A stretch of DNA of 64,000 nucleotides from a virus: the IMG/VR virus record IMGVR_UViG_3300046171_000138. One strand, written 5' to 3'. How positions within the stretch are numbered: position 1 is the stretch's first letter; each line of letters begins with the position of its first letter. The position numbers and the translations under genes were made by a program. The notes beneath the pieces are model-generated. The model worked only from the letters and a program-made list of their open reading frames with translations, was not told where the DNA came from and searched no databases. Positions 22,487 through 47,564 of the stretch are shown here, one piece after another.

Positions 22487-25400
22487 ATGGCAGATTTCAG
22501 ATTAGGCAGACTTAAGTTTAATTGGAGGGGCGACTGGACAGTCGCAACTGCATACGTTATCGATGATATCGTAAAGTTTGGCGCAAACACCTATGTTTGT
22601 GTTTCCAACCATACGTCGGTATCAAACGAAGCGCAGTGGTATTCGGGCGATGGCGCTAGATGGCAAGTCCATACCGAAGGCATTTACAATCGTGGAGATT
22701 GGGCAGATGCAACCTTCTACAAATTAAACGATATCGTAAAGTACGGTAACGATCAATACCGTGTAACCGTTGCCCACACCTCTAGCGGTACATTCGCTTC
22801 AGCAAATTTCATTTCTTATGTCAATGGACTTAAGTTTGAAGATTCCTGGGACACTAATACCGAGTATCAATCTGGTGACATTGTAACCTTTGGTGGTTAC
22901 TCTTATGTTGCCCTTTCTACTTCTACAGGTGCTGCACCAAACAACCTTGGCGCTAGTTGGGAAATTCTAACAACTGGTTTTAAAGTTGTAGGTACATGGA
23001 GCAATAGCACAGCATACAAACCTGGTGACGTTGTACTACTTGGTGGTAACTCATACGTTGCTAAAACAACTAATACCAACTCTACACCATCAGCTGCTTC
23101 TGCTGATTGGGACTTCGTTGTTGGTGGTTTCACCTGGAGAGGTGTTTGGAGTTCGACAGAAACATATCAGCCTGGTGATGCAATCTCCAGAGCGTCTAAC
23201 TCTTACATCTGTGTTGCCGAGTCTACTAACAATACCCCAGAGACAGACGTTAATGGAGACTATTGGAACTCCCTGACTCAAGGAGCTCAATCCAACGTCT
23301 TGACAGATGCTGGTGATGTTCTTTATATTTCGGGTTCTGGTGCTGCCAGACTACCTATTGGAGCCAGCGGTCAAGTTCTGACAGTTGATTCTAACGGTTA
23401 TCCTGCTTGGGAAAAAAGTAATGCAACCGATCCTGTTTACTATGTTACTGTCAATGGCAGTGATCTAAACAGTGGCGAGAATATTACCAAGTCATTTGGT
23501 TCACTACGTTACGCTCTAGATAACGTTACTGGTCCTGCAACTATTTACGTTAAGGCAGGTACGTATAACGAAACTCTACCAATGTTCGTTCCCGAGAATA
23601 TCTCGATCATTGGTGATAACATGAGAACTACTGTTATCAAACCAAACGTTGGTGCAAATTCTTCTACACAGAAACTGACACTAGCTACAGTTCCTGATGC
23701 TGCTTTAAGAGTTATTGGCGAAACATGCACCAACGGTGCTGGCGATAAGACTGCACAAATCATCGATGTTAAAGATGGTGGTGGTACTATTGATATCATG
23801 CCTATTACTGGTGGTGACTGGACAGTTTCAGATACTTTCGAGGCTGGCACTAATGATGTTGTAATCAATCAGGTTGCACCAATCCTTAATCAGAACTCAA
23901 CGTTGTTCTACCTGTCTAACAGATCCATGCTTAAGGATTTGGTTATGGACGGTATGGCAGGATTTGTTCCTTCAGCATCTGATCCAAAAGATCTTAACAC
24001 CGCAACGATTGAGGGTGTATTTGTAAGACTCAACCCTAACTCCCCAATTACCAAGTCTCCTTACGTTTCGCAGTGTTCTGCGTTCTCCCAGACTGGTGTT
24101 GGTGCTATCGTTGATGGTAGTGTTCATAACAAGTATGACGGAACTGGAACTCCTTCTAACAAGTCAATCGTTTTTGACTCCTGGACTAACATCCACGAGA
24201 ACGGTGGTGTAGGTTTCTGGATTACAAATAACGGCGCTGCTGAAATTGTATCCTGTTTCACATACTACTGTCACGTTTCTTACTGCTCCACTAGAGGTGG
24301 TAGAATCAGATCTCTTGCAGGTAACTCTTCCTGGGGTACTTATGCTATTGTATCTTCTGGTTTCAACGAAAATGAAACTACCCTCGACGGATTTGTCGAT
24401 GGTCTAGAACTGAACTATGATCTGACCACACTTTCTGCTGGTACATCTTTTGAGAAAGATGAGCAGATGGTCGGTGGTACGTCTGGTGCTGTTGGTGAAG
24501 TTACTAGCTTCCAACCTTCTGCAGATAAGATTCTATTCCGTCCTCTCAAGGGAACATTCGTTCAGAACGAAGTTGTTACTGGTCAAACATCAGGAGCAAC
24601 GGCAACTCTGGTCAACAACTCCGATGCACAGAAAGGACAAAACGGATTTACCTTTGTTCTTGGCGGCATGACTGCTGCTCCAGATCCAGGTGGTTCGATT
24701 GAATATGTAACTGGTCCTGGTGGTGCTGGTGCTGATCAATTCACATATGTTGTTGCAAACTCTTCTTATAACGCACCATCTGGTCGTGGCGAACTAACAG
24801 TAACTAGAGCACTTCTAGGTTCTGCTGCTGCAACTCATGACGGTTTGAGCACGATTACTAGATATCAAACTGGTACTGCAACATCTCTATCTGCACCTAT
24901 TAGTAGTGCAGCAGATGTAACTATTCAAGTTTCTTCTATTACTGGTATTAACACTGGTGGTTATATCATTATCGGAAACGAAATGATGGAAGTTGTTGCT
25001 TTCCCAACTGCAACATCAGTTACTGTTGTTAGAGGAGTAGAAGGAACTTCTGCTTCCACACATACATCTGGTATAACTGTTAGAGCACTTCAAATTAAGG
25101 TTCCTTCCCAAACTACAACTGCTAGAGACCTCACTGCTAGTGATACAATCATCTTGGTTGAGACTGCAACTGGTACTCTATCAGCTGATTACATCAAGAT
25201 TGATAATGAGTTTATGCAAGTTGCTACATCTGCAACAATTACAACTGGTACTGTTACCATTGTTCTTGCAGAAACAAAACCAACACCATCTTACGATCGT
25301 CAACTAACTAGAGTTAGATATCTTTATTCACAAGTTAGACTAACTGGTCATGACTTCCTAGATATCGGTACTGGTAATAAGACACAAACTAACTGGCCTG

Positions 25401-25756
25401 GTCTGCCACTTTCGGCACCTGCACCTGGCAACGAAGTTACTGAAGATTTCCCAGGTCGTGTATTCTACGTTTCAACTGACCAAGATGGTAACTTTACCGT
25501 TGGTCGTTACTTTAAGGTTAACCAGTCAACTGGTAGCACAACCTTGAATGCATCTTCCTTCGATCTTTCTGGTCTATCATCCTTGAGACTCGGTTCTATC
25601 GGTGCTCAAATTGGTGAATCAATTGATGAATTCTCCAGCGACGTTACACTGTCCGCTAATAGCAACGCTAAAGTTCCTACACAGAAGGCAGTTAAGACTT
25701 ACGTTGATACTAAAACGAAGACGAAAGGCTTCACTTTCTGGGCGGGAGCAATGTGA
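22487..25756 (+). CDS. Tail fibre/tailspike: N-terminal CBM5/12-like Trp repeats, beta-helix region, trimerising C-terminus (1089 aa)
   Basis: Repeats WxGxWxxxTxYxxxDxV; VYYVTVNGSDLNSGENITKSFGSLRYAL...IYVKAGTYNE; C-terminal GHDFLDIGTG and VPTQKAVKTYVD. Confidence 0.75.
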   Translation: MADFRLGRLKFNWRGDWTVATAYVIDDIVKFGANTYVCVSNHTSVSNEAQWYSGDGARWQVHTEGIYNRGDWADATFYKLNDIVKYGNDQYRVTVAHTSSGTFASANFISYVNGLKFEDSWDTNTEYQSGDIVTFGGYSYVALSTSTGAAPNNLGASWEILTTGFKVVGTWSNSTAYKPGDVVLLGGNSYVAKTTNTNSTPSAASADWDFVVGGFTWRGVWSSTETYQPGDAISRASNSYICVAESTNNTPETDVNGDYWNSLTQGAQSNVLTDAGDVLYISGSGAARLPIGASGQVLTVDSNGYPAWEKSNATDPVYYVTVNGSDLNSGENITKSFGSLRYALDNVTGPATIYVKAGTYNETLPMFVPENISIIGDNMRTTVIKPNVGANSSTQKLTLATVPDAALRVIGETCTNGAGDKTAQIIDVKDGGGTIDIMPITGGDWTVSDTFEAGTNDVVINQVAPILNQNSTLFYLSNRSMLKDLVMDGMAGFVPSASDPKDLNTATIEGVFVRLNPNSPITKSPYVSQCSAFSQTGVGAIVDGSVHNKYDGTGTPSNKSIVFDSWTNIHENGGVGFWITNNGAAEIVSCFTYYCHVSYCSTRGGRIRSLAGNSSWGTYAIVSSGFNENETTLDGFVDGLELNYDLTTLSAGTSFEKDEQMVGGTSGAVGEVTSFQPSADKILFRPLKGTFVQNEVVTGQTSGATATLVNNSDAQKGQNGFTFVLGGMTAAPDPGGSIEYVTGPGGAGADQFTYVVANSSYNAPSGRGELTVTRALLGSAAATHDGLSTITRYQTGTATSLSAPISSAADVTIQVSSITGINTGGYIIIGNEMMEVVAFPTATSVTVVRGVEGTSASTHTSGITVRALQIKVPSQTTTARDLTASDTIILVETATGTLSADYIKIDNEFMQVATSATITTGTVTIVLAETKPTPSYDRQLTRVRYLYSQVRLTGHDFLDIGTGNKTQTNWPGLPLSAPAPGNEVTEDFPGRVFYVSTDQDGNFTVGRYFKVNQSTGSTTLNASSFDLSGLSSLRLGSIGAQIGESIDEFSSDVTLSANSNAKVPTQKAVKTYVDTKTKTKGFTFWAGAM

Positions 25757-26517: not shown

Positions 26518-27459
26518 ATGTCTAGTTTAAGAGATCTACTGGATGTTGCCACAACAGATGGCATTCCAGTAGCAACGTATTACGGTCCACAAAACGCTCA
26601 CCAGATCTGGTGGCGTGGAGGACATTGCTGGTACTACGAGAGTAGTCACAATTACCATTGGGCAGAAAACCGCTGGTGTGTTCCATCATGCTGCGTCTGT
26701 AAAGTACAGTTTGAAGTTTGGGGCGGCGGCGGAGGCGGCGGCGGTTCATGCTGCTGTATGTCTGGTGTCAATGGTTATTCTGGTCAATACAATAAATTTA
26801 CTGTTTGTGCAGCTGCACAAGGTGTGAACCAATTGGATCAATGCTGCTACGTGATGTGTGCTGGTACTATTACTTGCAGACACCCAGGTAACGGCGGTTT
26901 TGATGGATGCAAATCATTTGTTGTCGGTCCTGGTCTTGATAACTTCTGCGCTTGCGGTGGTTGTCACGGTTATTCTTGCTGCTTCGGTGGCGGTTCCTCT
27001 AGATGGGGTTGTCGCTTCAGAATGAACTGGCAGACAGGTCAGCCACATTGCAGATGGCAGTGTGATAAGTCTGGTGGAGAATACAGCGAATCACGTACCA
27101 ATCGTGATGCTGCTTGCGAACTTGGTCGTGAGTATTGGGGTCAAGTTGGTTCTTACAACCAGATGGACTGCCAAGAGTGTGGTAACTGGTGTATGATGAA
27201 ACACTCCTCACCATTTGCTCCTTACCAAGATGGTAAGTTTGGTACATTCAACCACCAAAGACACCATTCAATGGCTACTTGTGGTAGAACTGAAACGCAG
27301 TGGATTACAGGTAATAATGGAGGCATCTCTGGAGATTGCCACAGAAGCGGTCCTCCTGGTCACGGTGGATTCTCCTCCGACACATTCGGTGGCGGTTGCT
27401 GCTGCTCTTCTGAAGGCGCTGCAGGTCTAGTTAAAGTCACATGGTATTGCAAGGTATAA
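26518..27459 (+). CDS. Cys-rich Gly-rich-domain protein, paralogue 1 (putative fibre-tip adhesin)
   Basis: FEVWGGGGGGGGSCCC, NFCACGG, GGGCCC...GAAGLVKVTW; about 32 Cys in 313 aa by hand count. Confidence 0.7.
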   Translation: MSSLRDLLDVATTDGIPVATYYGPQNAHQIWWRGGHCWYYESSHNYHWAENRWCVPSCCVCKVQFEVWGGGGGGGGSCCCMSGVNGYSGQYNKFTVCAAAQGVNQLDQCCYVMCAGTITCRHPGNGGFDGCKSFVVGPGLDNFCACGGCHGYSCCFGGGSSRWGCRFRMNWQTGQPHCRWQCDKSGGEYSESRTNRDAACELGREYWGQVGSYNQMDCQECGNWCMMKHSSPFAPYQDGKFGTFNHQRHHSMATCGRTETQWITGNNGGISGDCHRSGPPGHGGFSSDTFGGGCCCSSEGAAGLVKVTWYCKV

Positions 27460-27463
27460 ACTA

Positions 27464-28418
27464 ATGGCAAATTTACGAGGTCTCCTGGGAAAGGAATTCG
27501 ATTCTACTGTTCTAGAAACTGCTGGGCAATACGGTAGTTACGAAAAAATTAGAGATGGTAAGGTGTATAACTTCGCACCTTACTGTCAACTTAAGTTGCG
27601 ATAGTAGTTATCGTGGTTATTGCCAAGAGTATTGGTGTATGCCATGTGGTACTACACAAGCTACTTTCGAGATTTGGGGTGGTGGCGGATCTGGTGGTGG
27701 CGCTTGCTGTTGCCAACAGGGTATGCCTGGTGGATCTGGTTCTTATTCCAGAAAAACTATCACCAGTGCAGATGGTTATGGTGACATGGGTGGTTGGTGT
27801 TTCTCACTTAAGGTTGCAGAACCCACTTGCTGCTCACAGTGTTGTGTTGGTATTCAAGGTTGCAAAACATATATCTGTGGTAAGAACAGTTCTGCACAGA
27901 GTGCCATTGGTAGTAACTTCTGTGCAGACGGTGGACTACCTGGCAAGACTTGCTGTTATGCATACTGGGACACTCAATTCAGATGTCTAGATAGAGTTTA
28001 TTGGACAGGTTGTGGTGGATACGATCCTGCTACTGATGGTCCTAACGCCTATGGCGGTGATGAGAACATTAAGGGACATCCAGGATTCTTCCGAATCTAT
28101 AATACATCTAGCAACTGCTGGGCGAAGATGGGAATGGCTTACCCACCCCGTCTAATTGACAAAGAAGGTGGACACTTGATTTCCAGCGTTAGAGGAAATG
28201 CTTGTATCAATGATCGTACCTTCTGTCAAGGAACCACTCCATGGGCATTCAATGCTAATTGTAATCCTACTCTACCTGGTGTAGGTGGTCCTTCATCAAC
28301 ATCTTGTGGTGGTAGTTGCTGTTACGGTCATAGAGGATCTGGTGGATATATTAAGATTACATATTGCTCCTGCTGGATGGGTGTGAATCGTGACTGTGCA
28401 TACCACTTCTGTAACTAA
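27464..28418 (+). CDS. Cys-rich Gly-rich-domain protein, paralogue 2, split by a +1 frameshift near 27587-27593
   Basis: ATG 27464 gives MANLRGLLGK..., the same N-terminal motif as paralogues 1 and 3, but stops at TAG 27602-27604. The Cys-rich domain (FEIWGGGGSGGGACCC) continues in the +1 frame (track ORF 27555..28418). Confidence 0.7.
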
Positions 28419-28421
28419 TAT

Positions 28422-28428
28422 CTAAATA
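28422..28428 (+). promoter_or_regulatory. Cyanophage late-promoter variant (CTAAATA)
   Basis: Intergenic, upstream of 28452. The same variant precedes gp17, gp18 and gp3. Confidence 0.5.
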
Positions 28429-28451
28429 GCATATAACAAGGAAAAGTACCG

Positions 28452-29354
28452 ATGCCTAACTCAAATTTACGCGATCTGCTCGGGATTGTAACAACTGATT
28501 CAATCAAAGGTTTAGCATCTGCCGATGCTACGACTAAACTACCCGCATATCCTAGTCAGGGATATAGAACAATGTACATCACTGCACAGTGTGGTGCTAC
28601 TTGTGATGATTGGACGAGTAACTATAGTTACTACGACTATCCCGATTGGAAAGTTCCTGCTAATACTACCCAAATCATTTTTGAGATTTGGGGTGCTGGC
28701 GGTGGCGGCGGTGATGGTTGTTGCTGTACTCGTGGTGTACCTGGTTCTTCTGGTGCTTATGCATATAAGATGCTATCTGGTTCTGATGTAGTTCCTGGTT
28801 GTGCTTATGCTATGGACATTGGTCAGGGTGGTAGATCAAGGCAGGGTCCTGCTTGTGGTCAACAAGGTAGCAAAACTTCTGTTATTGGATACGGTCTATC
28901 CAACTTCTGTGCTGATGGTGGATATGGTGGTTGCTCTTGCTGCTACATGTGTTGCTGTACTTGGGGTACGCTATGCAATGTGTGCTGTAACGGTCCTTGC
29001 GCTTTGTATTACGGCGCTAGCGGCGGTGCATATGGCAATCCAGGTGCTGGTACGATGTGGTGTGAAAATAATCACTGCTGGAACAAGCAACACATTCCTT
29101 ATCCAGGCGGTCTAGTTAATGGTAAAGGTGGTTGGTTGCCTGGTACACAATGCGAAAACACTGGTTGTGGATATTGTCTCAATCACTGGGCAGTTGCTCA
29201 ACTTGGTTGGGGTGGATCACATAGTGATCACAACTATGTTCCTGGCACTGGCGGTCCTTCTGCATGGGTTTGTGGTGGCGGTTGCTGCCGTGGTCAACAT
29301 GGAAACCCTGGTATGATCCGCATTTCATACAAGCAATCCGAACGCGGATATTGA
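28452..29354 (+). CDS. Cys-rich Gly-rich-domain protein, paralogue 3
   Basis: SNLRDLLG; FEIWGAGGGGGDGCCC; NFCADGG; GGGCC...GNPGMIRISY; about 26 Cys in 300 aa by hand count. Confidence 0.7.
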   Translation: MPNSNLRDLLGIVTTDSIKGLASADATTKLPAYPSQGYRTMYITAQCGATCDDWTSNYSYYDYPDWKVPANTTQIIFEIWGAGGGGGDGCCCTRGVPGSSGAYAYKMLSGSDVVPGCAYAMDIGQGGRSRQGPACGQQGSKTSVIGYGLSNFCADGGYGGCSCCYMCCCTWGTLCNVCCNGPCALYYGASGGAYGNPGAGTMWCENNHCWNKQHIPYPGGLVNGKGGWLPGTQCENTGCGYCLNHWAVAQLGWGGSHSDHNYVPGTGGPSAWVCGGGCCRGQHGNPGMIRISYKQSERGY

Positions 29355-29415: not shown

Positions 29416-30174
29416 ATGGCGAATATTTCAAAACCAGTAACTTACAACTTGCCTGACGAGTATACCAAGCAAACTAGTGATCTTGGTCTTACGGCAGAAT
29501 TTACCTACAAAGGTCCAGAGTATCTCTGGGTTTTTGTAGACGGCGAAACAGGTGCTCTTCTACCATCTCAATCGTTCATTGCTACTATCAACCCAACTAG
29601 GGATGAAGAGCAAGCTCGTGTACGTGCAGGTCTAGACGAAAAGGCAGTTCTTCTTCGTCCTAATACAAACGGAACAGATCTTCTACTAGCATCTATTCTA
29701 CTCGGACAAGATACTGGCAAAGCAACTGGTTATCCACAGAAAGAATACAAATTCCCTGCTGGTCATGCAAGAGCGGGTGAAACGTATTACGAGCGTCCCG
29801 ATCCCCAGCAACCAAACCATACTTACGCAGTAGACGAGATCATGTATGATCTTGCAAATGATTCCTGGGTTACTCCTTTCCCTTGGTTCAAGCCTTGGAT
29901 GACCGAAGAATTCCATAAGGAAGCAAGAGACTCTGCTCTCGAAGGCAATAGGGTCTTCTATGCAGAGATCAAAGGTAATATGACTGCTGATCAGATTGCA
30001 GCAGCAGACGCATGGATCGCTGCAATGGAAAATCTTTACACAGATTTTGCTGGTGTTGAACCATTCATGATTCCATTCCCTGAAAACCCATTGGGAGAAT
30101 TGGTTGAAGACTACGACTATAACGTAGATCCTGACAACCGTTTGGATGACACAAAAACTGACGGTGCTGTCTGA
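29416..30174 (+). CDS. Hypothetical protein, possibly a fibre assembly chaperone (Tfa-like C-terminus)
   Basis: Directly follows the adhesin-like genes. C-terminal helix then PFPENP recalls tail-fibre assembly proteins (weak similarity). Confidence 0.5.
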   Translation: MANISKPVTYNLPDEYTKQTSDLGLTAEFTYKGPEYLWVFVDGETGALLPSQSFIATINPTRDEEQARVRAGLDEKAVLLRPNTNGTDLLLASILLGQDTGKATGYPQKEYKFPAGHARAGETYYERPDPQQPNHTYAVDEIMYDLANDSWVTPFPWFKPWMTEEFHKEARDSALEGNRVFYAEIKGNMTADQIAAADAWIAAMENLYTDFAGVEPFMIPFPENPLGELVEDYDYNVDPDNRLDDTKTDGAV

Positions 30175-30183
30175 TTAGTTTTG

Positions 30184-30192
30184 TGGTATAAT
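30184..30192 (+). promoter_or_regulatory. Possible sigma70 extended -10 element (TG-G-TATAAT)
   Basis: TGGTATAAT immediately upstream of the terminator hairpin; no convincing -35. Confidence 0.4.
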
Positions 30193-30193
30193 G

Positions 30194-30219
30194 AGAGGGT
30201 CTTCGGACCCTCTTTTTTT
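30194..30219 (+). terminator. Rho-independent terminator with C(UUCG)G tetraloop
   Basis: AGAGGGTC-TTCG-GACCCTCT followed by TTTTTT. Confidence 0.85.
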
Positions 30220-30789
30220 ATGCTTAAATATCCTGATCTACGTGATCACATATTCGTACACAAACTCATCCCAGATAATCTATGCGATAAACTAATTACA
30301 AGACTCGATAAAAGACCATGGAAAGATCATAAATGGTATGACGCTGGTCTTAAACAAGATATAGAAGAAGCAGATTTTCAAACTTTGAAAGATGATACTG
30401 CTTCTGGAAAAATATATCCTTTGATTCAAGATCTTTGTATCGCATACCACGACAAGTATCATCAACCAGAAAATACAAATTCAGATTTATTCTGGTCTGT
30501 AGCTTCTAATATCAAGTTCAACAAATATACTGAAGGGGATAGCATCAAACCACATCACGATCATATTCATGATATGTTTCAAGGTGATCTACGTGGTATT
30601 CCAGTCACTAGTATTATTGGAGTTCTAAATGATGATTACCAAGGCGGTGAATTACTTTTTTGGAATGATCATAAAGTAGAATTAAAGAAAGGTGAGGTAG
30701 TTGCATTCCCATCAGTATTTTTATATCCCCATCAGGTTACTACAGTAACCAAAGGAACAAGATACTCTTGGGTTGCATGGTGCGTTTAA
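30220..30789 (+). CDS. 2OG-Fe(II) oxygenase (prolyl-4-hydroxylase-like)
   Basis: KYTEGDSIKPHHD (HxD), LNDDYQGGEL, FPSVFLYPHQV (His), GTRYSWVAW (Arg). ATG 30220 is preferred over TTG 30181. Confidence 0.9.
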   Translation: MLKYPDLRDHIFVHKLIPDNLCDKLITRLDKRPWKDHKWYDAGLKQDIEEADFQTLKDDTASGKIYPLIQDLCIAYHDKYHQPENTNSDLFWSVASNIKFNKYTEGDSIKPHHDHIHDMFQGDLRGIPVTSIIGVLNDDYQGGELLFWNDHKVELKKGEVVAFPSVFLYPHQVTTVTKGTRYSWVAWCV

Positions 30790-30814: not shown

Positions 30815-30841
30815 AAGTATATAAATCATTAGCAACTGATT

Positions 30842-31990
30842 ATGAGACCTAAATCATTTTTTGTCAATGGTGGTGCTGGACGTGTGCTTTGTTCAATACC
30901 TGCATTTGAGAAATATCAAGAGGAACATCCCGACGAGGATTTCCTAATTATCTGTGAAGGAGGTACAGACTTCTTCAAAGGTCATCCGACACTTTACGGT
31001 AAAGTGTATGACCACTGGCACAAAAATATCTTTCGAGATAAACTTATTCATACAGATGTTAAAACACCTGAACCATATAGGGTGTGGGAATACTACAATC
31101 AAAAATGTAATCTATCCCAAGCATTTGATATTGAGATCAATGGGAAAGGTGTAAGAGAACTACCCAAACCAACTATCAAACTTTCTAAAGAAGAACAAGT
31201 AAATGGAAAGTTTGTTGTTGCAGAAGTAAGACAAAAGACAAACAAGAAAAAGACAGTTGTTTTTCAACCTTTTGGTAGAGGAGTTCAAACTGTTGGAAAT
31301 ATCATTACCGATTCTTCTGGAAGAAGTTTTGAGTTTAAGAATGTTATTTCTATCATGAAACGTTTGCAGAAAAAGTATTCTGTAATCCTGATGTCAGAGT
31401 TTGGATTTGATTTTGAAAAAGAAGGATTGAGAGATACTGTTTCTTTTCCTGCTGGAAATCAAGTTCCTTTGCGAGGATGGGCTGGCATTATTAAAGAAGC
31501 AGATCTATTCCTAGGATGTGATTCCGTTGGTCAACACATTGCATATTCAGTAGGAACACCTGTGGTTTCTGTTATGGGATCTACTTTTGGTGTCAATGTT
31601 TCATATCCAGACCACGAGAAAGTAGATGTTCTTGATATGGGCGAAGGATTGAGATTGTATGATCCTATTCGTGTCTGTCCTGATGAAGAATCTGCAAGAG
31701 TAAATGATGGCATCATGATGATGAATGATAAAGTCGAAGAAGTTATCATGAAGTCTGTTGACAAACTGATGAACAGGTATTACACCAAACCAGAAATGGA
31801 GATTGTTCTCCCAGAATCTTATGGTGGTCCTCAAGAAGGATGTCCAACTTGTCCACCAGAAGCACCGCTATCAGCGCCAAAGCAGCAAGGATTGGGTCCA
31901 ATTGAATTGGAAGCTGCATCGAATGGAGTAAAGATCCCCTCACTAGAACCTAGTAAGAAAGGATTTTCTCAAACTGTAAAAGTAAATTGA
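30842..31990 (+). CDS. GT9-like (heptosyltransferase-fold) glycosyltransferase
   Basis: N-terminal GGAGRVLCSIPAF (compare GDxxxxxP) and C-terminal FLGCDSVGQHIAYSVGTPVVSVMG (compare DSGPMHLAAALGTP). Confidence 0.65.
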   Translation: MRPKSFFVNGGAGRVLCSIPAFEKYQEEHPDEDFLIICEGGTDFFKGHPTLYGKVYDHWHKNIFRDKLIHTDVKTPEPYRVWEYYNQKCNLSQAFDIEINGKGVRELPKPTIKLSKEEQVNGKFVVAEVRQKTNKKKTVVFQPFGRGVQTVGNIITDSSGRSFEFKNVISIMKRLQKKYSVILMSEFGFDFEKEGLRDTVSFPAGNQVPLRGWAGIIKEADLFLGCDSVGQHIAYSVGTPVVSVMGSTFGVNVSYPDHEKVDVLDMGEGLRLYDPIRVCPDEESARVNDGIMMMNDKVEEVIMKSVDKLMNRYYTKPEMEIVLPESYGGPQEGCPTCPPEAPLSAPKQQGLGPIELEAASNGVKIPSLEPSKKGFSQTVKVN

Positions 31991-31997
31991 GGTTATA

Positions 31998-33683
31998 ATG
32001 TCTGTTATTGTTTCGGTCGCCCGTGGTCATAACGGGAGTACGACTTTGTTGGTTGATGGCAAGGTAGTATTTTATCTGGAGGAGGAGCGACTGTCTCGCT
32101 TTAAGTATGATGGTTCTCCTCTACTTGGTTTGCAGAAAGTATTTGATTATGTAGATCACATTGATCATCTAGTAGTCTGTCATACCCATCGTCATGGTCC
32201 TGTTCTTGATTGGTCTGGCGAAGGTGCATATCAAGGATGGGTAAGAAAACTAGCTAGGAAAAGATTTGAGTTTCAGACTCACGAAATTGATACTATCCAT
32301 CACGAGATGCATGCTGCATGTGGTTTCTATAACTCTGGGTTTGAAACTGCTGCTTGTGTAATTGCTGATGGTGCTGGTAGTTTCCTACAGATTGGAGAAA
32401 TTGAAGATACCTGCTATGAGTTTGAAACTATTTTCAATGCATCATATCCTGGTGATTTTGATACTGTCTATAAGCATGTAGGTACAAAACAATCAATTGG
32501 TATGTCGGAACCAGAAGATAACATCTTTGTTACCGAGTACCCTGGTCATACTAAAATGTATGAAGCAGTAACACAATATTGTGGATTCCCCGCCATTGAG
32601 GCAGGTAAGCTCATGGGTCTTGCTCCATACGGCAACCCCAATGAAGACCTACCATCATTCTTTAATGGCGAGTGGGGTAATCGAAATCTGATTATTCCTA
32701 CTTATCCTAATGCAGCAATGCTTAATGTTTCTCGTTATGATGTCCTCAAAGAGGACGTTAAGAATCATGTTCAGGGTGAGTATACGGATGTTCAAAAGGA
32801 TCTCGCTTACAAGATTCAGGAACAAACTTCCGACCGTATGGTTCAGTTGATTCGCAAAGCACACGAATTGACTGGTGAAAAGAACATTGTAATTTGTGGT
32901 GGTTACGGTCTCAACTGCGTTGCAAACTACAAGTATTGGAAGGAGTTTCCTGATCTCAATATCTACTGTGAGCCTATCTCACATGACGGTGGTACTTCTA
33001 TTGGTGGAGCCAAATATGTCTACAACAAACTGAAGGAAACCGAGAAACCCAGTAAGCAAGAGTCTGTTTATTATGGTCCTCAATATGATCCTACTGGTTA
33101 CGAGGCAGACCTAGAAGGTCTAGAAGTTACCGACACTTCATATGATGATGTTGCTAAACTAATTCGTGAAGGTAGCATCGTAACAATCTATCAGGGTCGT
33201 TCCGAGGGTGGTCCTCGTGCATTGGGCAACAGATCTATTCTGTTCGATCCTACTATCAAAGATGGTAAAGATCATGTCAATGCAGTCAAGCACCGTGAAT
33301 GGTTCCGACCATTTGCTTGTTCCATTAAGAAAGAAGCAGTTCATGACTGGTTTGATCTAGCAGGTCGTGATGAGACACCTCACATGATGTATGCAGTCAA
33401 GTGTCATGATGGAGTAGAAGAAAAGATTCCTTCTGTTATTCATGTTGATAACACTTGCAGAATCCAGACAGTGACTCCAGAACAGAATGAACACTATTAT
33501 AATCTCATTGATGCATTTGATAAGATTTCAGGTGTTCCTATTCTGTTCAACACTTCTTTTAATCTTGGTGGAGACCCTCTGGTCGAGACAATCGAAGATG
33601 CAGTCAACACTTTGAGTAAGAGTGATATTGAATGGATGTATCTTCCAGAAATTCAGAAACTTGTTCATGTACCAAACGAATGA
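31998..33683 (+). CDS. O-carbamoyltransferase, NodU/CmcH family
   Basis: GHNGS, EEERLSR, HHEMHA, GKLMGLAPYG, GGYGLNCVAN, DGGTSIG, GPRALGNRSIL, KHREWFRPFA, NTSFNLGG. Confidence 0.95.
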   Translation: MSVIVSVARGHNGSTTLLVDGKVVFYLEEERLSRFKYDGSPLLGLQKVFDYVDHIDHLVVCHTHRHGPVLDWSGEGAYQGWVRKLARKRFEFQTHEIDTIHHEMHAACGFYNSGFETAACVIADGAGSFLQIGEIEDTCYEFETIFNASYPGDFDTVYKHVGTKQSIGMSEPEDNIFVTEYPGHTKMYEAVTQYCGFPAIEAGKLMGLAPYGNPNEDLPSFFNGEWGNRNLIIPTYPNAAMLNVSRYDVLKEDVKNHVQGEYTDVQKDLAYKIQEQTSDRMVQLIRKAHELTGEKNIVICGGYGLNCVANYKYWKEFPDLNIYCEPISHDGGTSIGGAKYVYNKLKETEKPSKQESVYYGPQYDPTGYEADLEGLEVTDTSYDDVAKLIREGSIVTIYQGRSEGGPRALGNRSILFDPTIKDGKDHVNAVKHREWFRPFACSIKKEAVHDWFDLAGRDETPHMMYAVKCHDGVEEKIPSVIHVDNTCRIQTVTPEQNEHYYNLIDAFDKISGVPILFNTSFNLGGDPLVETIEDAVNTLSKSDIEWMYLPEIQKLVHVPNE

Positions 33684-34078
33684 AAATATCTTTCGTAAAC
33701 GGATGTTTTGATGTGCTCCATCCTGGACACATCGAACTTCTAAAGTACGCTAGGTCTTTTGGAGACTATCTCATTGTTGCTATTGATTCCGATAGGAAGG
33801 TAGCAGAAATGAAAGGTCCCGAGAGACCTATTTTTTCGCAATTCGATAGACGGATGATGCTAGATGCCATCAGATATGTTGATGTAGTTCATGTGTTTGA
33901 TACCAGACAAGAACTAGAGGAGTTGCTGGAATCGCTTAAACCTGATACAATGGTAGTCGGTTCCGACTGGAAAGGAAAAGAAGTAGTAGGTTCACACTAT
34001 GCAAAATCAGTTCGGTTTTTTGATCGACAAGGAGACTACTCCACAACCCAAACAATTCAAGGTACTCCTTATCGGTGA
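33680..34078 (+). CDS. hldC: D-glycero-beta-D-manno-heptose-1-phosphate adenylyltransferase (RfaE/HldE domain II)
   Basis: NGCFDVLHPGH (HxGH), DSDRKV...KGPERP, GSDW, YSTT. ATGA overlap places the start at 33680. Confidence 0.85.
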   Translation: MKISFVNGCFDVLHPGHIELLKYARSFGDYLIVAIDSDRKVAEMKGPERPIFSQFDRRMMLDAIRYVDVVHVFDTRQELEELLESLKPDTMVVGSDWKGKEVVGSHYAKSVRFFDRQGDYSTTQTIQGTPYR

Positions 34079-34784
34079 TACCTGTACCGACAAGTATGTG
34101 TATGGTACAGTCACCAGAATCAGTCCTGAAGCACCAGTACCAGTCATGGTATACGATAGGGTAGAGACTGCCAAAGGCATGGCTTATAACGTCAGAGAGA
34201 ACCTGATGTCTTTTGGTAGTGAGGTTTATATGATGACTCATGAGTCTTCTATCACAAAGACTCGTTATGTAGATTCAAAATCTAATCAACAAATTATGAG
34301 ATTGGATGAAAATGATACTGCAGAAGATTTTGGATGGGAGTTACCAGAAGAACAATTTGATGTCATGGTCATCTCTGACTACAACAAAGGATTCCTTTCC
34401 GAAGAAAAGATTCAAGAACTGGTAGACTGGTTTAAGGGTCCTGTCTTTATCGATAGTAAGAAGACTCGATTACCTAAAGAGTGTTATATTAAAGTCAATG
34501 ATCGAGAAGCACAAAAATTAGAAGGAGACTACCCCAATCTAATTGTAACTAAAGGATCACAGGGATGTACTTATGATGGTATGTCTTTTCCTGGTATTAA
34601 TGTACCTGTATTTGATGTAGCAGGTGCTGGTGATACATTTCTAGCAACATTAGTTCATTTTTATCTGCTTTTAGGAACTATTGATCGTGCTATTCCATAT
34701 GCAAATAAAGCAGCAGCAATTGCCGTCACACACTTCGGCACCTATGTCCTATCCCAAGATGATGTAAATGAAATACGTTGTTGA
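33999..34784 (+). CDS. hldA: Heptose-7-phosphate kinase (RfaE/HldE domain I, PfkB family)
   Basis: LIGDTCTDKYVYG...RISPEAPVPV, ISDYNKG, DVAGAGDTFLA. Confidence 0.85.
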   Translation: MQNQFGFLIDKETTPQPKQFKVLLIGDTCTDKYVYGTVTRISPEAPVPVMVYDRVETAKGMAYNVRENLMSFGSEVYMMTHESSITKTRYVDSKSNQQIMRLDENDTAEDFGWELPEEQFDVMVISDYNKGFLSEEKIQELVDWFKGPVFIDSKKTRLPKECYIKVNDREAQKLEGDYPNLIVTKGSQGCTYDGMSFPGINVPVFDVAGAGDTFLATLVHFYLLLGTIDRAIPYANKAAAIAVTHFGTYVLSQDDVNEIRC

Positions 34785-35094
34785 TATTGATAATACTATC
34801 TGCACACCAACTGTAGGTAGAAACTATGAAGATGCTCAACCTTGGCATACCAGAATTGATAAAATAAATAAGTTGTATGATGAAGGTCATACAATAGTAT
34901 ACTTCACTGCTAGAGGAATGGGTAGGTTTGATGGAGATCCTGATGCAGCCTGGAAAGCAGCTCAACTCCTAACAGACTTAACCAGAGAACAATTAAATAC
35001 TTGGGGATGTAAGTATCACGATTTGATACTGGGAAAACCACACGCTGATTATTTTATTGACGACAAAGGAATTAATTCTAATGACTTCTTTTAA
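34768..35094 (+). CDS. Small HAD-family phosphatase (C0 cap)
   Basis: YVVDIDNTIC (DxDxT), FTARG, GKP, FIDDK. Confidence 0.85.
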   Translation: MKYVVDIDNTICTPTVGRNYEDAQPWHTRIDKINKLYDEGHTIVYFTARGMGRFDGDPDAAWKAAQLLTDLTREQLNTWGCKYHDLILGKPHADYFIDDKGINSNDFF

Positions 35095-35431
35095 ACACGT
35101 ACCTAAAGGTTGGGGATACGAAAAGTGGATTGTCAATAATGACAAATACTGTGGAAAACTTTTATTCTTTGAACCAGGGAAGAAATGTTCTTGGCACTAT
35201 CATCAGTTAAAAGAAGAAACATTCTACATTCACTCGGGTAAGATACAATTAGTATATGGATATGAGGATGATTTTGCTGATGCAGATACAGTAATATTAA
35301 AACCTGGAGACAAATTTGAAGTCCCCAGGTTATTGCGTCATCAGATGTTAGGTTTAGAAGAGACGGAAATGTATGAGTTCTCTACGACACACTTTGACTC
35401 TGATTCCTATCGAGTAGTGAAAGGTGACTGA
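35081..35431 (+). CDS. Cupin-fold sugar isomerase-like protein
   Basis: VPKGWGYE...CSWHYHQLKEETFYI...H...EFSTTHFDSDSYRV. ATG 35081 is preferred. Confidence 0.8.
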   Translation: MTSFKHVPKGWGYEKWIVNNDKYCGKLLFFEPGKKCSWHYHQLKEETFYIHSGKIQLVYGYEDDFADADTVILKPGDKFEVPRLLRHQMLGLEETEMYEFSTTHFDSDSYRVVKGD

Positions 35432-36206
35432 TGTATGTCTCAATTGAGATGAACTCTTTGTTCTCCCACTTAAAATTAGCAACAGTATTGTATTGATACT
35501 TGTCCTTCAAATGTTCGGGGAAGGGGATCTCTTTGATCTCCGCCCCGAATTTTTTTGCGATAATTTCTGCTACCTGTCTGAATGAATAACATCTACCAGA
35601 TCCAAGATCATAGATGCCAGACTCTTCTCCATTGTTATCTACAATATCTACAACGTCATCTACCCATATAAAATCTCGGAACATCTTTTCAGATCCCTCA
35701 AAAATTTCAATCACACCTTTCTCTACTGCTTGCTCTGCAAACTTGCTTACAGGACTGCGTTGATTACCTTTGTGTTCTTCACCTAGACCATATACATTGA
35801 AGAATCTAAATCCTTGAATAAGCTCAAACCTATCAATATTTTCAGACACCCAAAGATCTACAGCAACCTTTGACTTTGCATACAGGTTGAGAGGATCTAG
35901 TCCACCATCATGCTTGTTACCATATACAGAAGCAGATGAAGCATACTTAACTGGGATGCCATGTTCGATAGCAATCTCAAATAATCTAATAGAAAATTCT
36001 ACGTTAAAGCAATTAAGTCTTTCTTCGTCAGTACATGTCGTGGAAGAGATAGCTCCCATGTGAATAATTTCATCAATGTCTTTCCATCCATGGAAGTTCT
36101 CAAGCATTGCCCATGCATTGTAATCCTCTACACCAATGAATGGTTTATGTTTTTCTGCAAACTTCTTACCAATAAATCCATTGCACCCAGTAATCAGTTT
36201 AGGCAT
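35382..36206 (-). CDS. hldD: ADP-L-glycero-D-manno-heptose-6-epimerase
   Basis: ITGCNGFIG, HMGAISSTT, YASSASVYG, PLNLYAKSK (YxxSK), FRFFNVYG.GE.HKG, RDFIWVDD, YQYNTVA. Start MPKLITG at 36206. Confidence 0.9.
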   Translation of the reverse strand: MPKLITGCNGFIGKKFAEKHKPFIGVEDYNAWAMLENFHGWKDIDEIIHMGAISSTTCTDEERLNCFNVEFSIRLFEIAIEHGIPVKYASSASVYGNKHDGGLDPLNLYAKSKVAVDLWVSENIDRFELIQGFRFFNVYGLGEEHKGNQRSPVSKFAEQAVEKGVIEIFEGSEKMFRDFIWVDDVVDIVDNNGEESGIYDLGSGRCYSFRQVAEIIAKKFGAEIKEIPFPEHLKDKYQYNTVANFKWENKEFISIETYISHLSLLDRNQSQSVS

Positions 36207-36221
36207 AGTATTGTAGACAGG

Positions 36222-36229
36222 TATAAATA
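36222..36229 (+). promoter_or_regulatory. T4 late promoter (TATAAATA)
   Basis: Perfect consensus upstream of 36263. Confidence 0.75.
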
Positions 36230-36262
36230 AGTATAACACAGAAGGACTATAGCGACAACCAG

Positions 36263-37401
36263 ATGTCTAATCCCACCTTTGGATATTTAGCGTCTCTTGT
36301 AACACCCCTAAAAACGAGAGTCGCATTACACACTGCAGAAGCAGGCAAGGTCGTAGAGGGTAAACTTGTTATTACACATAAAGACCCTTATCCTGTTAGG
36401 GTTAGGATCGGTGTATCCACTGGTGGAGTTCTTGACTTCAATCCAGAAAACTACATTCTCTATGATTATGAAATTGGTGAAGGTGAAAGTTACGAAAGTG
36501 ATACGATCTACTACGGTAACAATCAGACTCTAGTTGTCTGGTCAACATGTGCGAGCACTACATTTGTCTTGCACGGTCAGATTAAAACTGACCCAACCGC
36601 TACTGGATTTGTAGCAGCAGCAATGCTGAATCCTACAAAAACAAATACTACAATCTACTCTGTACCAACAGACGAAGAAGCTCTATTGAGTTTGTTTGTT
36701 GCTAACCAAAGTTCTAGCAACGCAAGATTTAGAATTGCAGTTGTTGATTCTAGTGTTGCACCTGCGGTTACTTCAGACCAATACATTGAATACAATCAAG
36801 ATCTACTACCGAGAGTTTCTTATCAAAGAAAAGATATTAAGGTAAGAGGCGATCAAAGTATTGTAGCATACTCCGATAACCCAGATGTTTCCATTTCAGT
36901 TTATGCAAAATTTAACTACAGTGTAGTTGATACTGACTTCACAATCGGCGGTCAGTTAACTGTTGGTGGCGCAGCAATTCTGCAAGACACTTAGAAGTGA
37001 GGCAGACAGCAACATTCAAAGAAACTCTGGATGCAGAAAAAGCAGTTACGATTGGCACTGATGCTGTACCAGCCAATCTGACAGTGAAAGGTGATGTTGC
37101 TGTTGGATCTGCATCCATAGCACAATCAACAGGTAACATTTCTACTCCAGGCATTCTAACAGCAAACACAATTGCAACCAGTGGTGATATTGTTGCTGGA
37201 TCCAATAAAGTAGTTTTGGATGGATCTGCAGGGGACCTTACCATGCAAGGACAATTGACTGTAGTAGGAGGATTCGCAGGTGATCTGAATCTTCTAAATA
37301 ATAAAGTAACGAATCTGGCAGATCCTGCTGCCGCAACGGACGCTGCAAATCGCAAGTACGTTGATAGTAAGGTTGTAGCATTCTCTATCGCATTAGGATA
37401 A
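36263..37401 (+). CDS. Fibre-associated structural protein split by a -1 frameshift at about 36991 (track ORFs 36263..36994 and 36997..37401)
   Basis: ...ILQDT-TAG versus overlapping TTA GAA GTG; restoring one T gives ILQDTLEVRQTATFKE. The C-terminus has KVTNLADP...DAANRKYVD and AFSIALG. Confidence 0.7.
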
Positions 37402-46529: not shown

Positions 46530-47564
46530 ATGAAAGTTGGAATGATTGGTTTGGGTCGTATGGGCGAGGGTATGTCTCGCCGTATGATCAAAGAAGGAAT
46601 TGAAGTCTGGGGTTATAGAAATAACTACGAGAAGGCTTGTGAACAATATGAAGCAGGTTATATTAGTGGATGTGCCACTTCACTAGAGTACCTTGTTCAA
46701 TCAGTTAAAACTGATTCTGTTGCTGGTGAAGTTCCTGGTATCTTTCAACTTGTCATCCCCGCAGAACTAGTAGAGGAAACTATTAATGAGCTATTACCAC
46801 TACTTGGCGACGGAGATATTATTATTGATCATGGCAATAGCAATTTTAAGGACAGTCGGAGGAGGGCGGAACGTCTTTCAAAACTGGGTATCCAGTATAT
46901 TGATTGCGGTACTTCTGGTGGAGTTTATGGTTTGGACCGTGGATTCTGTCTTATGGTTGGTGGTTCAGATACTGCAATATCCATCTGCTCTCCTATCTTC
47001 AGGGCACTTGCACCTGGTATTGCCGCAGCAACCCGTACAGACCCATATAGTCATGCAACCAGTGCTGAATATGGTTGGCTACATTGTGGACCATCAGGCG
47101 CAGGTCACTTTGTAAAAATGGTTCACAACGGAGTCGAATATGGAATCATGCAAGCGTATGCAGAAGGGTTTAATATTCTCCATTCTAGTAACCTTGGTTC
47201 CCAATATGTTAAGGAAGGGGATGCTGAAGTTGCTCCAATGTCAGATCCAGAAAATTACCAATACGACATTGATTGTGCTGAAGTGGCTGAGCTATGGCGT
47301 AGGGGTAGTGTGGTTGGCAGTTGGTTACTTGATCTTACTGCTGATGTATTTCGGAGCGATTCAGAACTTAAACAATTCTCTGGCGGAGTTTCCGATAGCG
47401 GTGAGGGTCGTTGGACTGTTAATGCCGCTGTCGATTTGGGTGTCCCCGCTCCTGTTATTACTGCAGCGTTGTATGAACGTTTTAACTCTCGTTCATTGGG
47501 CGCATTCGGAAGCAAGGTATTGAATGGTATGCGGTTTATGTTTGGCGGACACAACGTAAGATGA
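46530..47564 (+). CDS. gnd: 6-phosphogluconate dehydrogenase (decarboxylating, short type)
   Basis: GMIGLGRMG, IDHGNS, DCGTSGG, GAGHFVKMVHNGVEYG, DSGEGRWT. Confidence 0.97.
   Translation: MKVGMIGLGRMGEGMSRRMIKEGIEVWGYRNNYEKACEQYEAGYISGCATSLEYLVQSVKTDSVAGEVPGIFQLVIPAELVEETINELLPLLGDGDIIIDHGNSNFKDSRRRAERLSKLGIQYIDCGTSGGVYGLDRGFCLMVGGSDTAISICSPIFRALAPGIAAATRTDPYSHATSAEYGWLHCGPSGAGHFVKMVHNGVEYGIMQAYAEGFNILHSSNLGSQYVKEGDAEVAPMSDPENYQYDIDCAEVAELWRRGSVVGSWLLDLTADVFRSDSELKQFSGGVSDSGEGRWTVNAAVDLGVPAPVITAALYERFNSRSLGAFGSKVLNGMRFMFGGHNVR

Follow-up and report, generated by a model that had tools for sequence, protein, structure and literature searches.

Ever since cyanomyovirus genomes first appeared, in 2005, it has been asked what cyanophages do with their so-called lipopolysaccharide (LPS) genes, and the question is raised again by a cassette of seven tightly packed genes at positions 30842-36206 of a T4-like cyanomyovirus (IMG/VR record IMGVR_UViG_3300046171_000138). 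All positions given here refer to the whole 64,000-nucleotide (nt) stretch that was analysed (the window), and genes were called from a map of open reading frames (ORFs) together with Pfam, NCBIfam and PHROG profile scans. Two things are asked of this locus, namely what it makes and what it decorates. As far as homology and predicted structure allow, the cassette probably encodes a pathway to ADP-heptose; more tentatively, with a confidence that falls a little short of even, it would be a late phage glycosylation module that leads from sedoheptulose-7-phosphate (S7P) to ADP-heptose and on to transfer and carbamoylation, with a virion fibre or fibre-tip protein as acceptor. The cassette is real, coherent and already catalogued. 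What is new here is the lack of a GmhA isomerase together with the presence of a cupin, a phosphatase that is not of the GmhB type, an arginine in place of the catalytic Asp13 of the transferase, and the existence of loci with the transferase and carbamoyltransferase only.

The cassette, with six genes on the + strand and HldD on the - strand, and the motif that precedes it are as follows.

30820..30827, + strand: T4 late-promoter-like motif TATAAATC, 22 nt 5' of the transferase ATG, a 7/8 match to TATAAATA
30842..31990, + strand: GT9-fold heptosyltransferase-like enzyme (T4-GC 302; phrog_8954, PHROG function unknown), called from an AlphaFold2 (AF2) model, structural neighbours and hhalign
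31998..33683, + strand: O-carbamoyltransferase of the NodU/TobZ/GdmN/NovN type (T4-GC 303), called from PF16861, PF02543 and TobZ
33680..34078, + strand: HldC-like heptose-1-phosphate adenylyltransferase (T4-GC 304, phrog_7878), called from TIGR02199 and an HPGH motif
33999..34784, + strand: compact HldA-like heptose-7-phosphate 1-kinase of the PfkB family (T4-GC 305), 261 amino acids (aa), called from TIGR02198 and 4e84
34768..35094, + strand: minimal HAD phosphatase (T4-GC 306), 108 aa, called from TIGR01689, 9iqw and a DIDNT motif
35081..35431, + strand: metal-binding cupin (T4-GC 307), called from its metal tetrad and profile matches to lyxose isomerases
35382..36206, - strand: HldD-like ADP-heptose 6-epimerase (T4-GC 308), called from TIGR02197 and 1eq2, convergent with the operon

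The ORF map and the profile scans placed every gene named in the preliminary description where it had been reported, and the tightly overlapping operon behind a late-promoter motif, lying between fibre genes, was recovered as described. The carbamoyltransferase stop and the HldC start form an ATGA overlap, the following genes overlap by 80 nt (HldC/HldA), 17 nt (HldA/HAD) and 14 nt (HAD/cupin), and the convergent cupin and HldD genes share 50 nt. Fibre genes flank the block on both sides, and T4-type structural genes for fibres, neck, terminase, sheath, portal and capsid surround it. The + strand of the window holds six perfect copies of TATAAATA and two 7/8 copies, and all eight TATAAAT copies on this strand lie 5-58 nt 5' of the start of a + strand gene, so that the motif behaves like a T4-type late promoter; the three 7-mers of the motif on the - strand are inside genes. 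The copy 5' of the first gene thus suggests that the cassette would be expressed late. Sigma-70-like promoter matches in the region are at chance level, and one of them, a TTGTCG-17-TATACT with an extended TG on the - strand at 36230-36258, lies upstream of HldD, because of which the epimerase may be transcribed separately from the late operon, although such matches occur at chance frequency. The idea that the cassette is stuffer DNA or in decay was rejected in view of its intact catalytic motifs and of a gene order that is kept across genera at 42-97% aa identity.

Homology supported the claim that the gene set is coherent for the synthesis of ADP-L-glycero-D-manno-heptose followed by transfer and O-carbamoylation. 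HldD matched TIGR02197 at 4e-57 (194 bits; cut-off 274.6) and the E. coli HldD structure 1eq2 at 1.9e-32, with residues aligned to S116, Y140, K144, K178 and D210, so that the Ser/Tyr/Lys triad and the equivalents of Lys178 and Asp210 are kept along with a GCNGFIG Rossmann motif. For HldA the best family was TIGR02198 (3.8e-40, 138 bits; cut-off 345) and the closest solved relative was the Burkholderia HldA 4e84 (1.7e-18), with which it has RISPEAPVP and GAGD motifs in common. HldC matched TIGR02199, the RfaE domain II family, at 2.7e-35 and carries the HPGH motif; its 121 bits on this family (cut-off 181.5) compare with 71 bits on the cytidylyltransferase TagD. On these alignments HldA, HldC and HldD are divergent, compact versions of the bacterial enzymes. 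In comparison to the bacterial pathway to ADP-L-glycero-beta-D-manno-heptose, therefore, the kinase, the adenylyltransferase and the epimerase are homologous with their catalytic motifs kept, while the phage cassette differs in that the kinase and the adenylyltransferase are separate genes in reversed order, that all of its enzymes are compact and below the equivalog cut-offs, that the phosphatase is a mini-HAD of the TIGR01689/9iqw type rather than GmhB, and that a lyxose-isomerase-like cupin stands in place of the SIS-type GmhA.

The phosphatase called for some revision of the preliminary description, where it had been taken as the GmhB step: a HAD protein with a DxDxT motif is indeed present, but its identity with GmhB did not hold. 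Its motifs read from the sequence are DIDNT (for DxDxT), TAR, GKP and IDD, its best matches were TIGR01689 (2e-9) and 9iqw, a 'capsule biosynthesis protein' (1.2e-12), and the HAD-IIIA family to which GmhB belongs gave only 17.9 bits. By these profile scores the protein is a member of the TIGR01689/9iqw 'capsule biosynthesis phosphatase' family and not of the GmhB family, and it would nevertheless carry out the GmhB step, the removal of the 7-phosphate. The label 'phosphoheptose isomerase' that it bears in phage records is a misnomer. The HAD is 49% identical at the aa level to that of S-CAM1, in comparison to 85-93% for the neighbouring genes, and a metagenomic relative (L022) carries HAD and cupin alleles of the window type at 90-95% with its other genes at 62-89%, a pattern which looks like allele swapping within the cassette.

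The first step of the pathway poses the larger problem, since PF13580 and TIGR00441 detected no SIS-type GmhA in three complete genomes (S-CAM1, S-CAM3 and the IMG/VR relative G005, which is 100% complete), and tblastn with E. coli GmhA matched neither the window nor any of 82 related loci. Lyxose and mannose isomerases form, from a ketose, the C2 configuration that is common to lyxose and mannose, which is the chemistry of GmhA on S7P. The cupin of the cassette, whose model has a pLDDT of 92, has an invariant His-His-Glu-His metal site (H39, H41, E46, H87) and gave weak profile matches to D-lyxose isomerase 2y0o (9e-5), to D-lyxose/D-mannose isomerase 7nzo (2.4e-4) and to L-ribose isomerases, the isomerases as a group ranging from 9e-5 to 6e-4. 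A K-x-E-T-F motif around the metal-binding Glu is common to the cupin and the lyxose isomerases, which were also its most similar relatives (25-26% identity, in comparison to 22-23% for archaeal phosphomannose isomerase (PMI) and 17% for CapF), and HldC, HldA and HldD accompany the cupin in 29 of 29 loci whose flanks are long enough. These features argue that the cupin, which phage records label 'cysteine dioxygenase', is probably an S7P/heptose-7-phosphate isomerase and a non-orthologous replacement of GmhA; no literature on a cupin-type S7P isomerase was found. As for the 'cupin isomerase' proposed earlier, the cupin and its homology to lyxose/mannose isomerases stand, and the isomerase role is still to be read as a prediction.

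The same protein allows for a different role, in which a CapF-like cupin would epimerise a nucleotide sugar together with the short-chain dehydrogenase/reductase (SDR) enzyme to give a non-canonical heptose isomer, the isomerase step being supplied by the host. The CapF cupin domain was the top structural match (Z 15.7), the cupin and SDR genes are adjacent and convergent, and cupin epimerases are known to modify GDP-heptoses in Campylobacter. We consider this role unlikely, however, in view of the profile scores (9e-5 for the isomerase in comparison to 0.018 for CapF), the identities given above, the K-x-E-T-F motif held in common with lyxose isomerases, and the GmhA-shaped gap in complete phage genomes.

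The transferase could be assigned only in part as the GT9-like enzyme of the preliminary description. Pfam PF01075 (GT9) gave 20.3 bits, below the gathering cut-off of 22 bits, and reached E<=0.01 in 19 of the 41 family members; a PDB sequence search with a profile of close homologues gave no match, and one with a broader profile gave weak matches to the C-terminal domain only. The AF2 model has a confident core (residues 1-315), with the C-terminal ~55 aa predicted to be disordered, and its top 11 structural neighbours were all GT9 proteins with Z-scores of 17.5-22.9, the next fold following at ~12.2. Among these neighbours were a Veillonella GT9 protein (22.9), WaaF (20.4), the GT9-like subunit of chloroplast NDH (18-19), TibC (18.9) and WaaC (17.5-18.4), and hhalign against E. 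coli WaaC/F/Q/U gave an E-value of 5.8e-10 over both domains. In the donor site R161, D227 and H232 correspond to K192, D261 and H266 of WaaC. The GT9 fold and the residues of the ADP-heptose site thus stand, whereas the Pfam score is below threshold and the catalytic base is not kept: G13-R14, conserved in at least 90% of the phage family, aligns to the invariant G12-D13 of WaaC/F/Q/U, so that a conserved Arg takes the place of Asp13. Because of this replacement the protein is not a canonical GT9 enzyme, and with fold and donor site kept it is best described as heptosyltransferase-like but noncanonical, and must use another acceptor or another catalytic base.

In comparison to the LPS heptosyltransferases WaaC and WaaF, the phage family thus has the GT-B fold (Z 18-20) and the ADP-heptose site in common, and differs in the Arg for Asp13, in its subthreshold Pfam score, and in that the Kdo-lipid A acceptor (Kdo, 3-deoxy-D-manno-octulosonate) is not expected in the host. 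TibC and Aah offer another comparison, as ADP-heptose-using enzymes which are encoded beside the adhesin they decorate (TibA/AIDA-I). The heptosyltransferase fold is common to TibC and the phage enzyme, but the phage model aligns to TibC residues 96-395 only, the first ~95 residues having no counterpart, and the neighbours of the phage enzyme are fibre and fibre-tip proteins rather than autotransporters, so protein heptosylation would be an extension of the likeness. Records of ~78-kb Vibrio phages and of an Aeromonas phage (OZ195742 and others, OQ594355, MK301608) contain remote relatives of the transferase, at 25-27% identity over ~70% of its length.

The carbamoyltransferase could be assigned as such, with a Kae1-like N-terminal domain (PF02543, 2e-18) and a YrdC-like C-terminal domain (PF16861, 3e-58) being the two parts of the match, and a full-length alignment to TobZ (residues 20-562; 5e-49), next to matches to 7xb6 (2.5e-50), GdmN and NovN. 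7-O-carbamoyl-heptose in the inner core of Pseudomonas aeruginosa is a case where heptose is combined with a NodU-type carbamoyltransferase, and the phage pair resembles it in this combination, the context of the acceptor being different. TobZ, GdmN and NovN, the nearest solved carbamoyltransferases, all tailor small molecules, and the unusual Arg where the base would lie could suit a small acceptor of negative charge, so that the product may be imagined as a soluble or small-molecule glycoconjugate or a carbamoylated nucleotide sugar (a metabolite, inhibitor or signal) made by antibiotic-type tailoring. No scaffold-building genes lie nearby, however, and the conserved neighbours are all virion genes, which makes this outcome quite improbable.

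To see how far the cassette extends beyond this phage, its relatives were compared. At the nt level the region 30842-36239 is ~85% identical to S-CAM1, and half of its length matches S-CAM3 at 77%. The same ordered cassette (T4-GC 302-308) is found in P-SSM2 (PSSM2_307-313), S-SSM7 (SSSM7_120-133), S-CAM1 and S-CAM3, and four genera of phages that infect Prochlorococcus and Synechococcus keep this gene order between fibre genes. The seven families, their order, the opposite-strand epimerase, the place between fibre genes and the nearby 2-oxoglutarate (2OG) oxygenases are alike, while the window phage differs by an extra upstream 2OG oxygenase, the divergent HAD allele and a frameshifted downstream fibre gene. 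The cassette family is very abundant in ocean metagenomes: in the protein collection the transferase had 3593 homologues and the cupin 3237, and the family was seen on at least 571 viral contigs. A survey of synteny with fibre genes, which the preliminary description had proposed, found the transferase-carbamoyltransferase pair within the tail-fibre module in every relative.

Locus classes were counted in the best 80 related viral loci. The full set (class A) was present in 42 of the 80, and 21 had the transferase and carbamoyltransferase only (class B), each with at least 9 kb downstream. HldA and HldD were not found in the three class B records searched, nor psbA in the four searched (records of 80-223 kb); a complete class A genome has psbA. 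The absence of these genes from class B is provisional because the records are fragments. Some class B loci (e.g., L076, 10999-12822) hold two 300-aa ORFs between the transferase and the carbamoyltransferase, which have no Pfam match and are not GT9-like, and some class A cassettes have a second carbamoyltransferase and up to three oxygenases of the prolyl 4-hydroxylase (P4H) type. Among isolated cyanophages the transferase occurs in S-CAM1, S-CAM3, Sf-FS3, S-SSM7/6a and P-SSM2/5, and in all seven HldA is a few kb away. The class A/B pattern would fit phages which supply the donor themselves when their host has none.

The neighbouring genes, which bear on the question of the acceptor, are listed below.

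26518..29354, + strand: three tandem Cys-rich, Gly-rich paralogues (phrog_4205, Gly_rich_2), candidate fibre-tip proteins
29416..30174, + strand: phrog_9740 protein, a possible tail assembly chaperone, with its own TATAAATA
30181..30789, + strand: P4H-type 2OG-Fe(II) oxygenase (PF13640, 4.9e-13), directly upstream of the transferase
36263..37401, + strand: tail-fibre gene (phrog_11338), downstream of the cassette and split here by a 1-nt deletion

The Cys-rich paralogues contain 26-32 Cys each (8.7-10.8% Cys) with poly-Gly and CCC motifs; they are likely to be fibre-tip proteins, which would make them candidate acceptors, and S-CAM1 and S-CAM3, which both bear the transferase, are the only isolated phages in which they were found. 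The phrog_9740 protein is likewise confined, among isolated phages, to those with the transferase, and its gene is next to that of the transferase both in class A (29 of 29 loci) and in class B (20 of 21); the lead for a chaperone role is a match to PF16778 clusters of the ESM Atlas (score 0.90). Further upstream, a tail-fibre protein of 1089 aa (22487-25756) has four CBM5/12 carbohydrate-binding repeats.

The oxygenase upstream of the transferase, whose start is probably the ATG at 30220, is a variable accessory which S-CAM1 lacks and only some close relatives share, and other versions of the cassette hold one to three such P4H-type enzymes. Their recurrence hints at a hydroxylation of the acceptor or the sugar. 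A terminator-like hairpin (30193-30214) lies just before this ATG. The oxygenases also count for another target, the phage DNA, on whose hydroxymethyl-pyrimidines heptose, with or without carbamoyl, could be placed as a hypermodification, a type of reaction known from some phage GT-B enzymes; phage gene clusters making heptosyl-5-hydroxymethylcytosine (5hmC) have been reported (bioRxiv 10.1101/2023.12.21.572611), and a DNA 5hmC carbamoyltransferase has been mentioned (bioRxiv 10.1101/2024.12.05.627091). Yet the oxygenases near the cassette are of the P4H type (PF13640), the structural neighbours listed for the transferase do not include T4 beta-glucosyltransferase, and searches of three complete genomes (S-CAM1, S-CAM3 and the 100%-complete relative) gave neither a ThyA/dCMP-hydroxymethylase (PF00303) nor a C5 DNA methylase (PF00145). 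Tet_JBP gave no match in the same three genomes either, a weak absence as the search control was also silent. Because these three relatives have no ThyA-family or C5-methylase gene, DNA modification is very improbable.

Taken as a pathway, the cassette would work as follows. The cupin would isomerise host S7P to D-glycero-D-manno-heptose-7-phosphate, HldA would phosphorylate C1, the 108-aa HAD would remove the 7-phosphate, HldC would adenylylate the product, and HldD would epimerise C6 to give ADP-L-glycero-beta-D-manno-heptose, the steps of HldA, HldC and HldD being predicted from homology. The GT9-fold enzyme would then transfer the heptose to the acceptor, and the TobZ-type enzyme would use carbamoyl phosphate and ATP to carbamoylate a hydroxyl, either on the sugar or on its acceptor. 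In the last and weakest step the acceptor would be a fibre or fibre-tip protein of the virion that is synthesised over the same period, much as TibC and Aah heptosylate adhesins.

Such an acceptor appears the most likely one because the transferase-carbamoyltransferase pair is fixed in the fibre module beside Cys/Gly-rich and chaperone-like proteins, and because the canonical Kdo/heptose acceptor in LPS is reported to be absent: the LPS of marine Synechococcus WH8102 and CC9311 is described as being without heptose and Kdo in a review (PMC4515613, citing Snyder 2009), and to the extent of that account the statement of the preliminary description agrees with published chemistry. No literature on ADP-heptose in Prochlorococcus or Synechococcus was found. 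The late-promoter motif, the TibC-like fold and a host LPS without heptose and Kdo, as far as that review describes it, together favour decoration of the virion fibre. In its most specific form, which we regard as possible but doubtful, the proposal is that two enzymes unrelated to those of the bacterial pathway (the cupin and the mini-HAD) help to make ADP-heptose, and that the Arg-type GT9 enzyme and the carbamoyltransferase decorate the phage's own Cys-rich fibre-tip adhesins with carbamoyl-heptose, a glycan which the host cannot make and which would tune adsorption or protect the tips.

Several observations weigh against the virion proposal or parts of it. All NCBIfam scores of the cassette proteins are below the curated equivalog cut-offs. 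In the structure search with the cupin, CapF, PMI and lyxose isomerase all scored Z 14-16, and the cupin fold alone therefore does not decide the function. With the catalytic Asp replaced by Arg, the chemistry or the acceptor of the transferase may be unusual, or the protein may only bind a nucleotide sugar. The LPS heptosyltransferases match its fold as well as TibC does, the position in the structural module is circumstantial for a virion target, and BLAST did not detect the Cys-rich proteins in P-SSM2 and S-SSM7, both of which bear the cassette.

The main rival, which is also the published reading of cyanophage 'LPS genes', is that the same pathway acts on the host envelope, be it on LPS, on a different glycan of the outer membrane or on a surface protein, and thereby blocks superinfection, lessens the loss of progeny on debris or deters grazers. 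Remodelling of the host envelope has a precedent in serotype conversion by temperate phages, and the LPS enzymes WaaF and WaaC are among the closest solved folds of the transferase. Against it are the reported absence, in the marine Synechococcus covered by the review above, of the canonical Kdo/heptose inner-core acceptor, the loss of the catalytic Asp of the LPS enzymes, and the lack of lipid-carrier, flippase or ligase genes in the cassette by Pfam and NCBIfam scans; a late promoter and a fixed place among fibre genes are also hard to square with remodelling of the envelope, from which a phage would gain more early on. We judge the host envelope a somewhat unlikely target, and one to be kept in view beside the virion fibre.

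The host-envelope hypothesis was stated long before this analysis. Sullivan et al. (2005) described the 'LPS genes' of P-SSM2 and proposed an alteration of the host surface against superinfection (PMC1079782), Clokie et al. extended the idea to grazing (PMC2984593), Sullivan et al. (2010) raised the issue of whether these genes are functional at all, and a genome note of 2020 reported heptose genes in another cyanophage. The preliminary description had offered host-surface change, superinfection exclusion and grazer avoidance as possible roles, which the first two of these papers already propose, and it overstated the novelty of the cassette, an identical one having been annotated in P-SSM2 (2005), S-SSM7, S-CAM1 and S-CAM3. 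If fibre-tip glycosylation is true, a bacteriophage would here make the sugar donor for its own virion, which is rarely seen, and this would bear on the host range and adsorption ecology of viruses that control marine picocyanobacteria; it would likewise bring a route to heptose that does without GmhA, and a branch of GT9 in which the catalytic machinery is altered.

Two further features of the window deserve mention. The phage gnd gene noted in the preliminary description is present at 46530-47564 and is of the short form (344 aa); a link from gnd to the supply of S7P is speculation. Its best cellular matches, at 49-54% identity, were from Chloroflexi, Actinobacteria, Planctomycetes and similar groups, with no cyanobacterium in the best 80 loci. 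The phrog_11338 fibre gene downstream of the cassette, which encodes ~380 aa in relatives, is split into ORFs of 243 aa and 134 aa by a 1-nt deletion in a T run near 36991, as judged against contigs that are 96-99% identical, and the break may stem from an error in sequencing, from slippage or from a true mutation.

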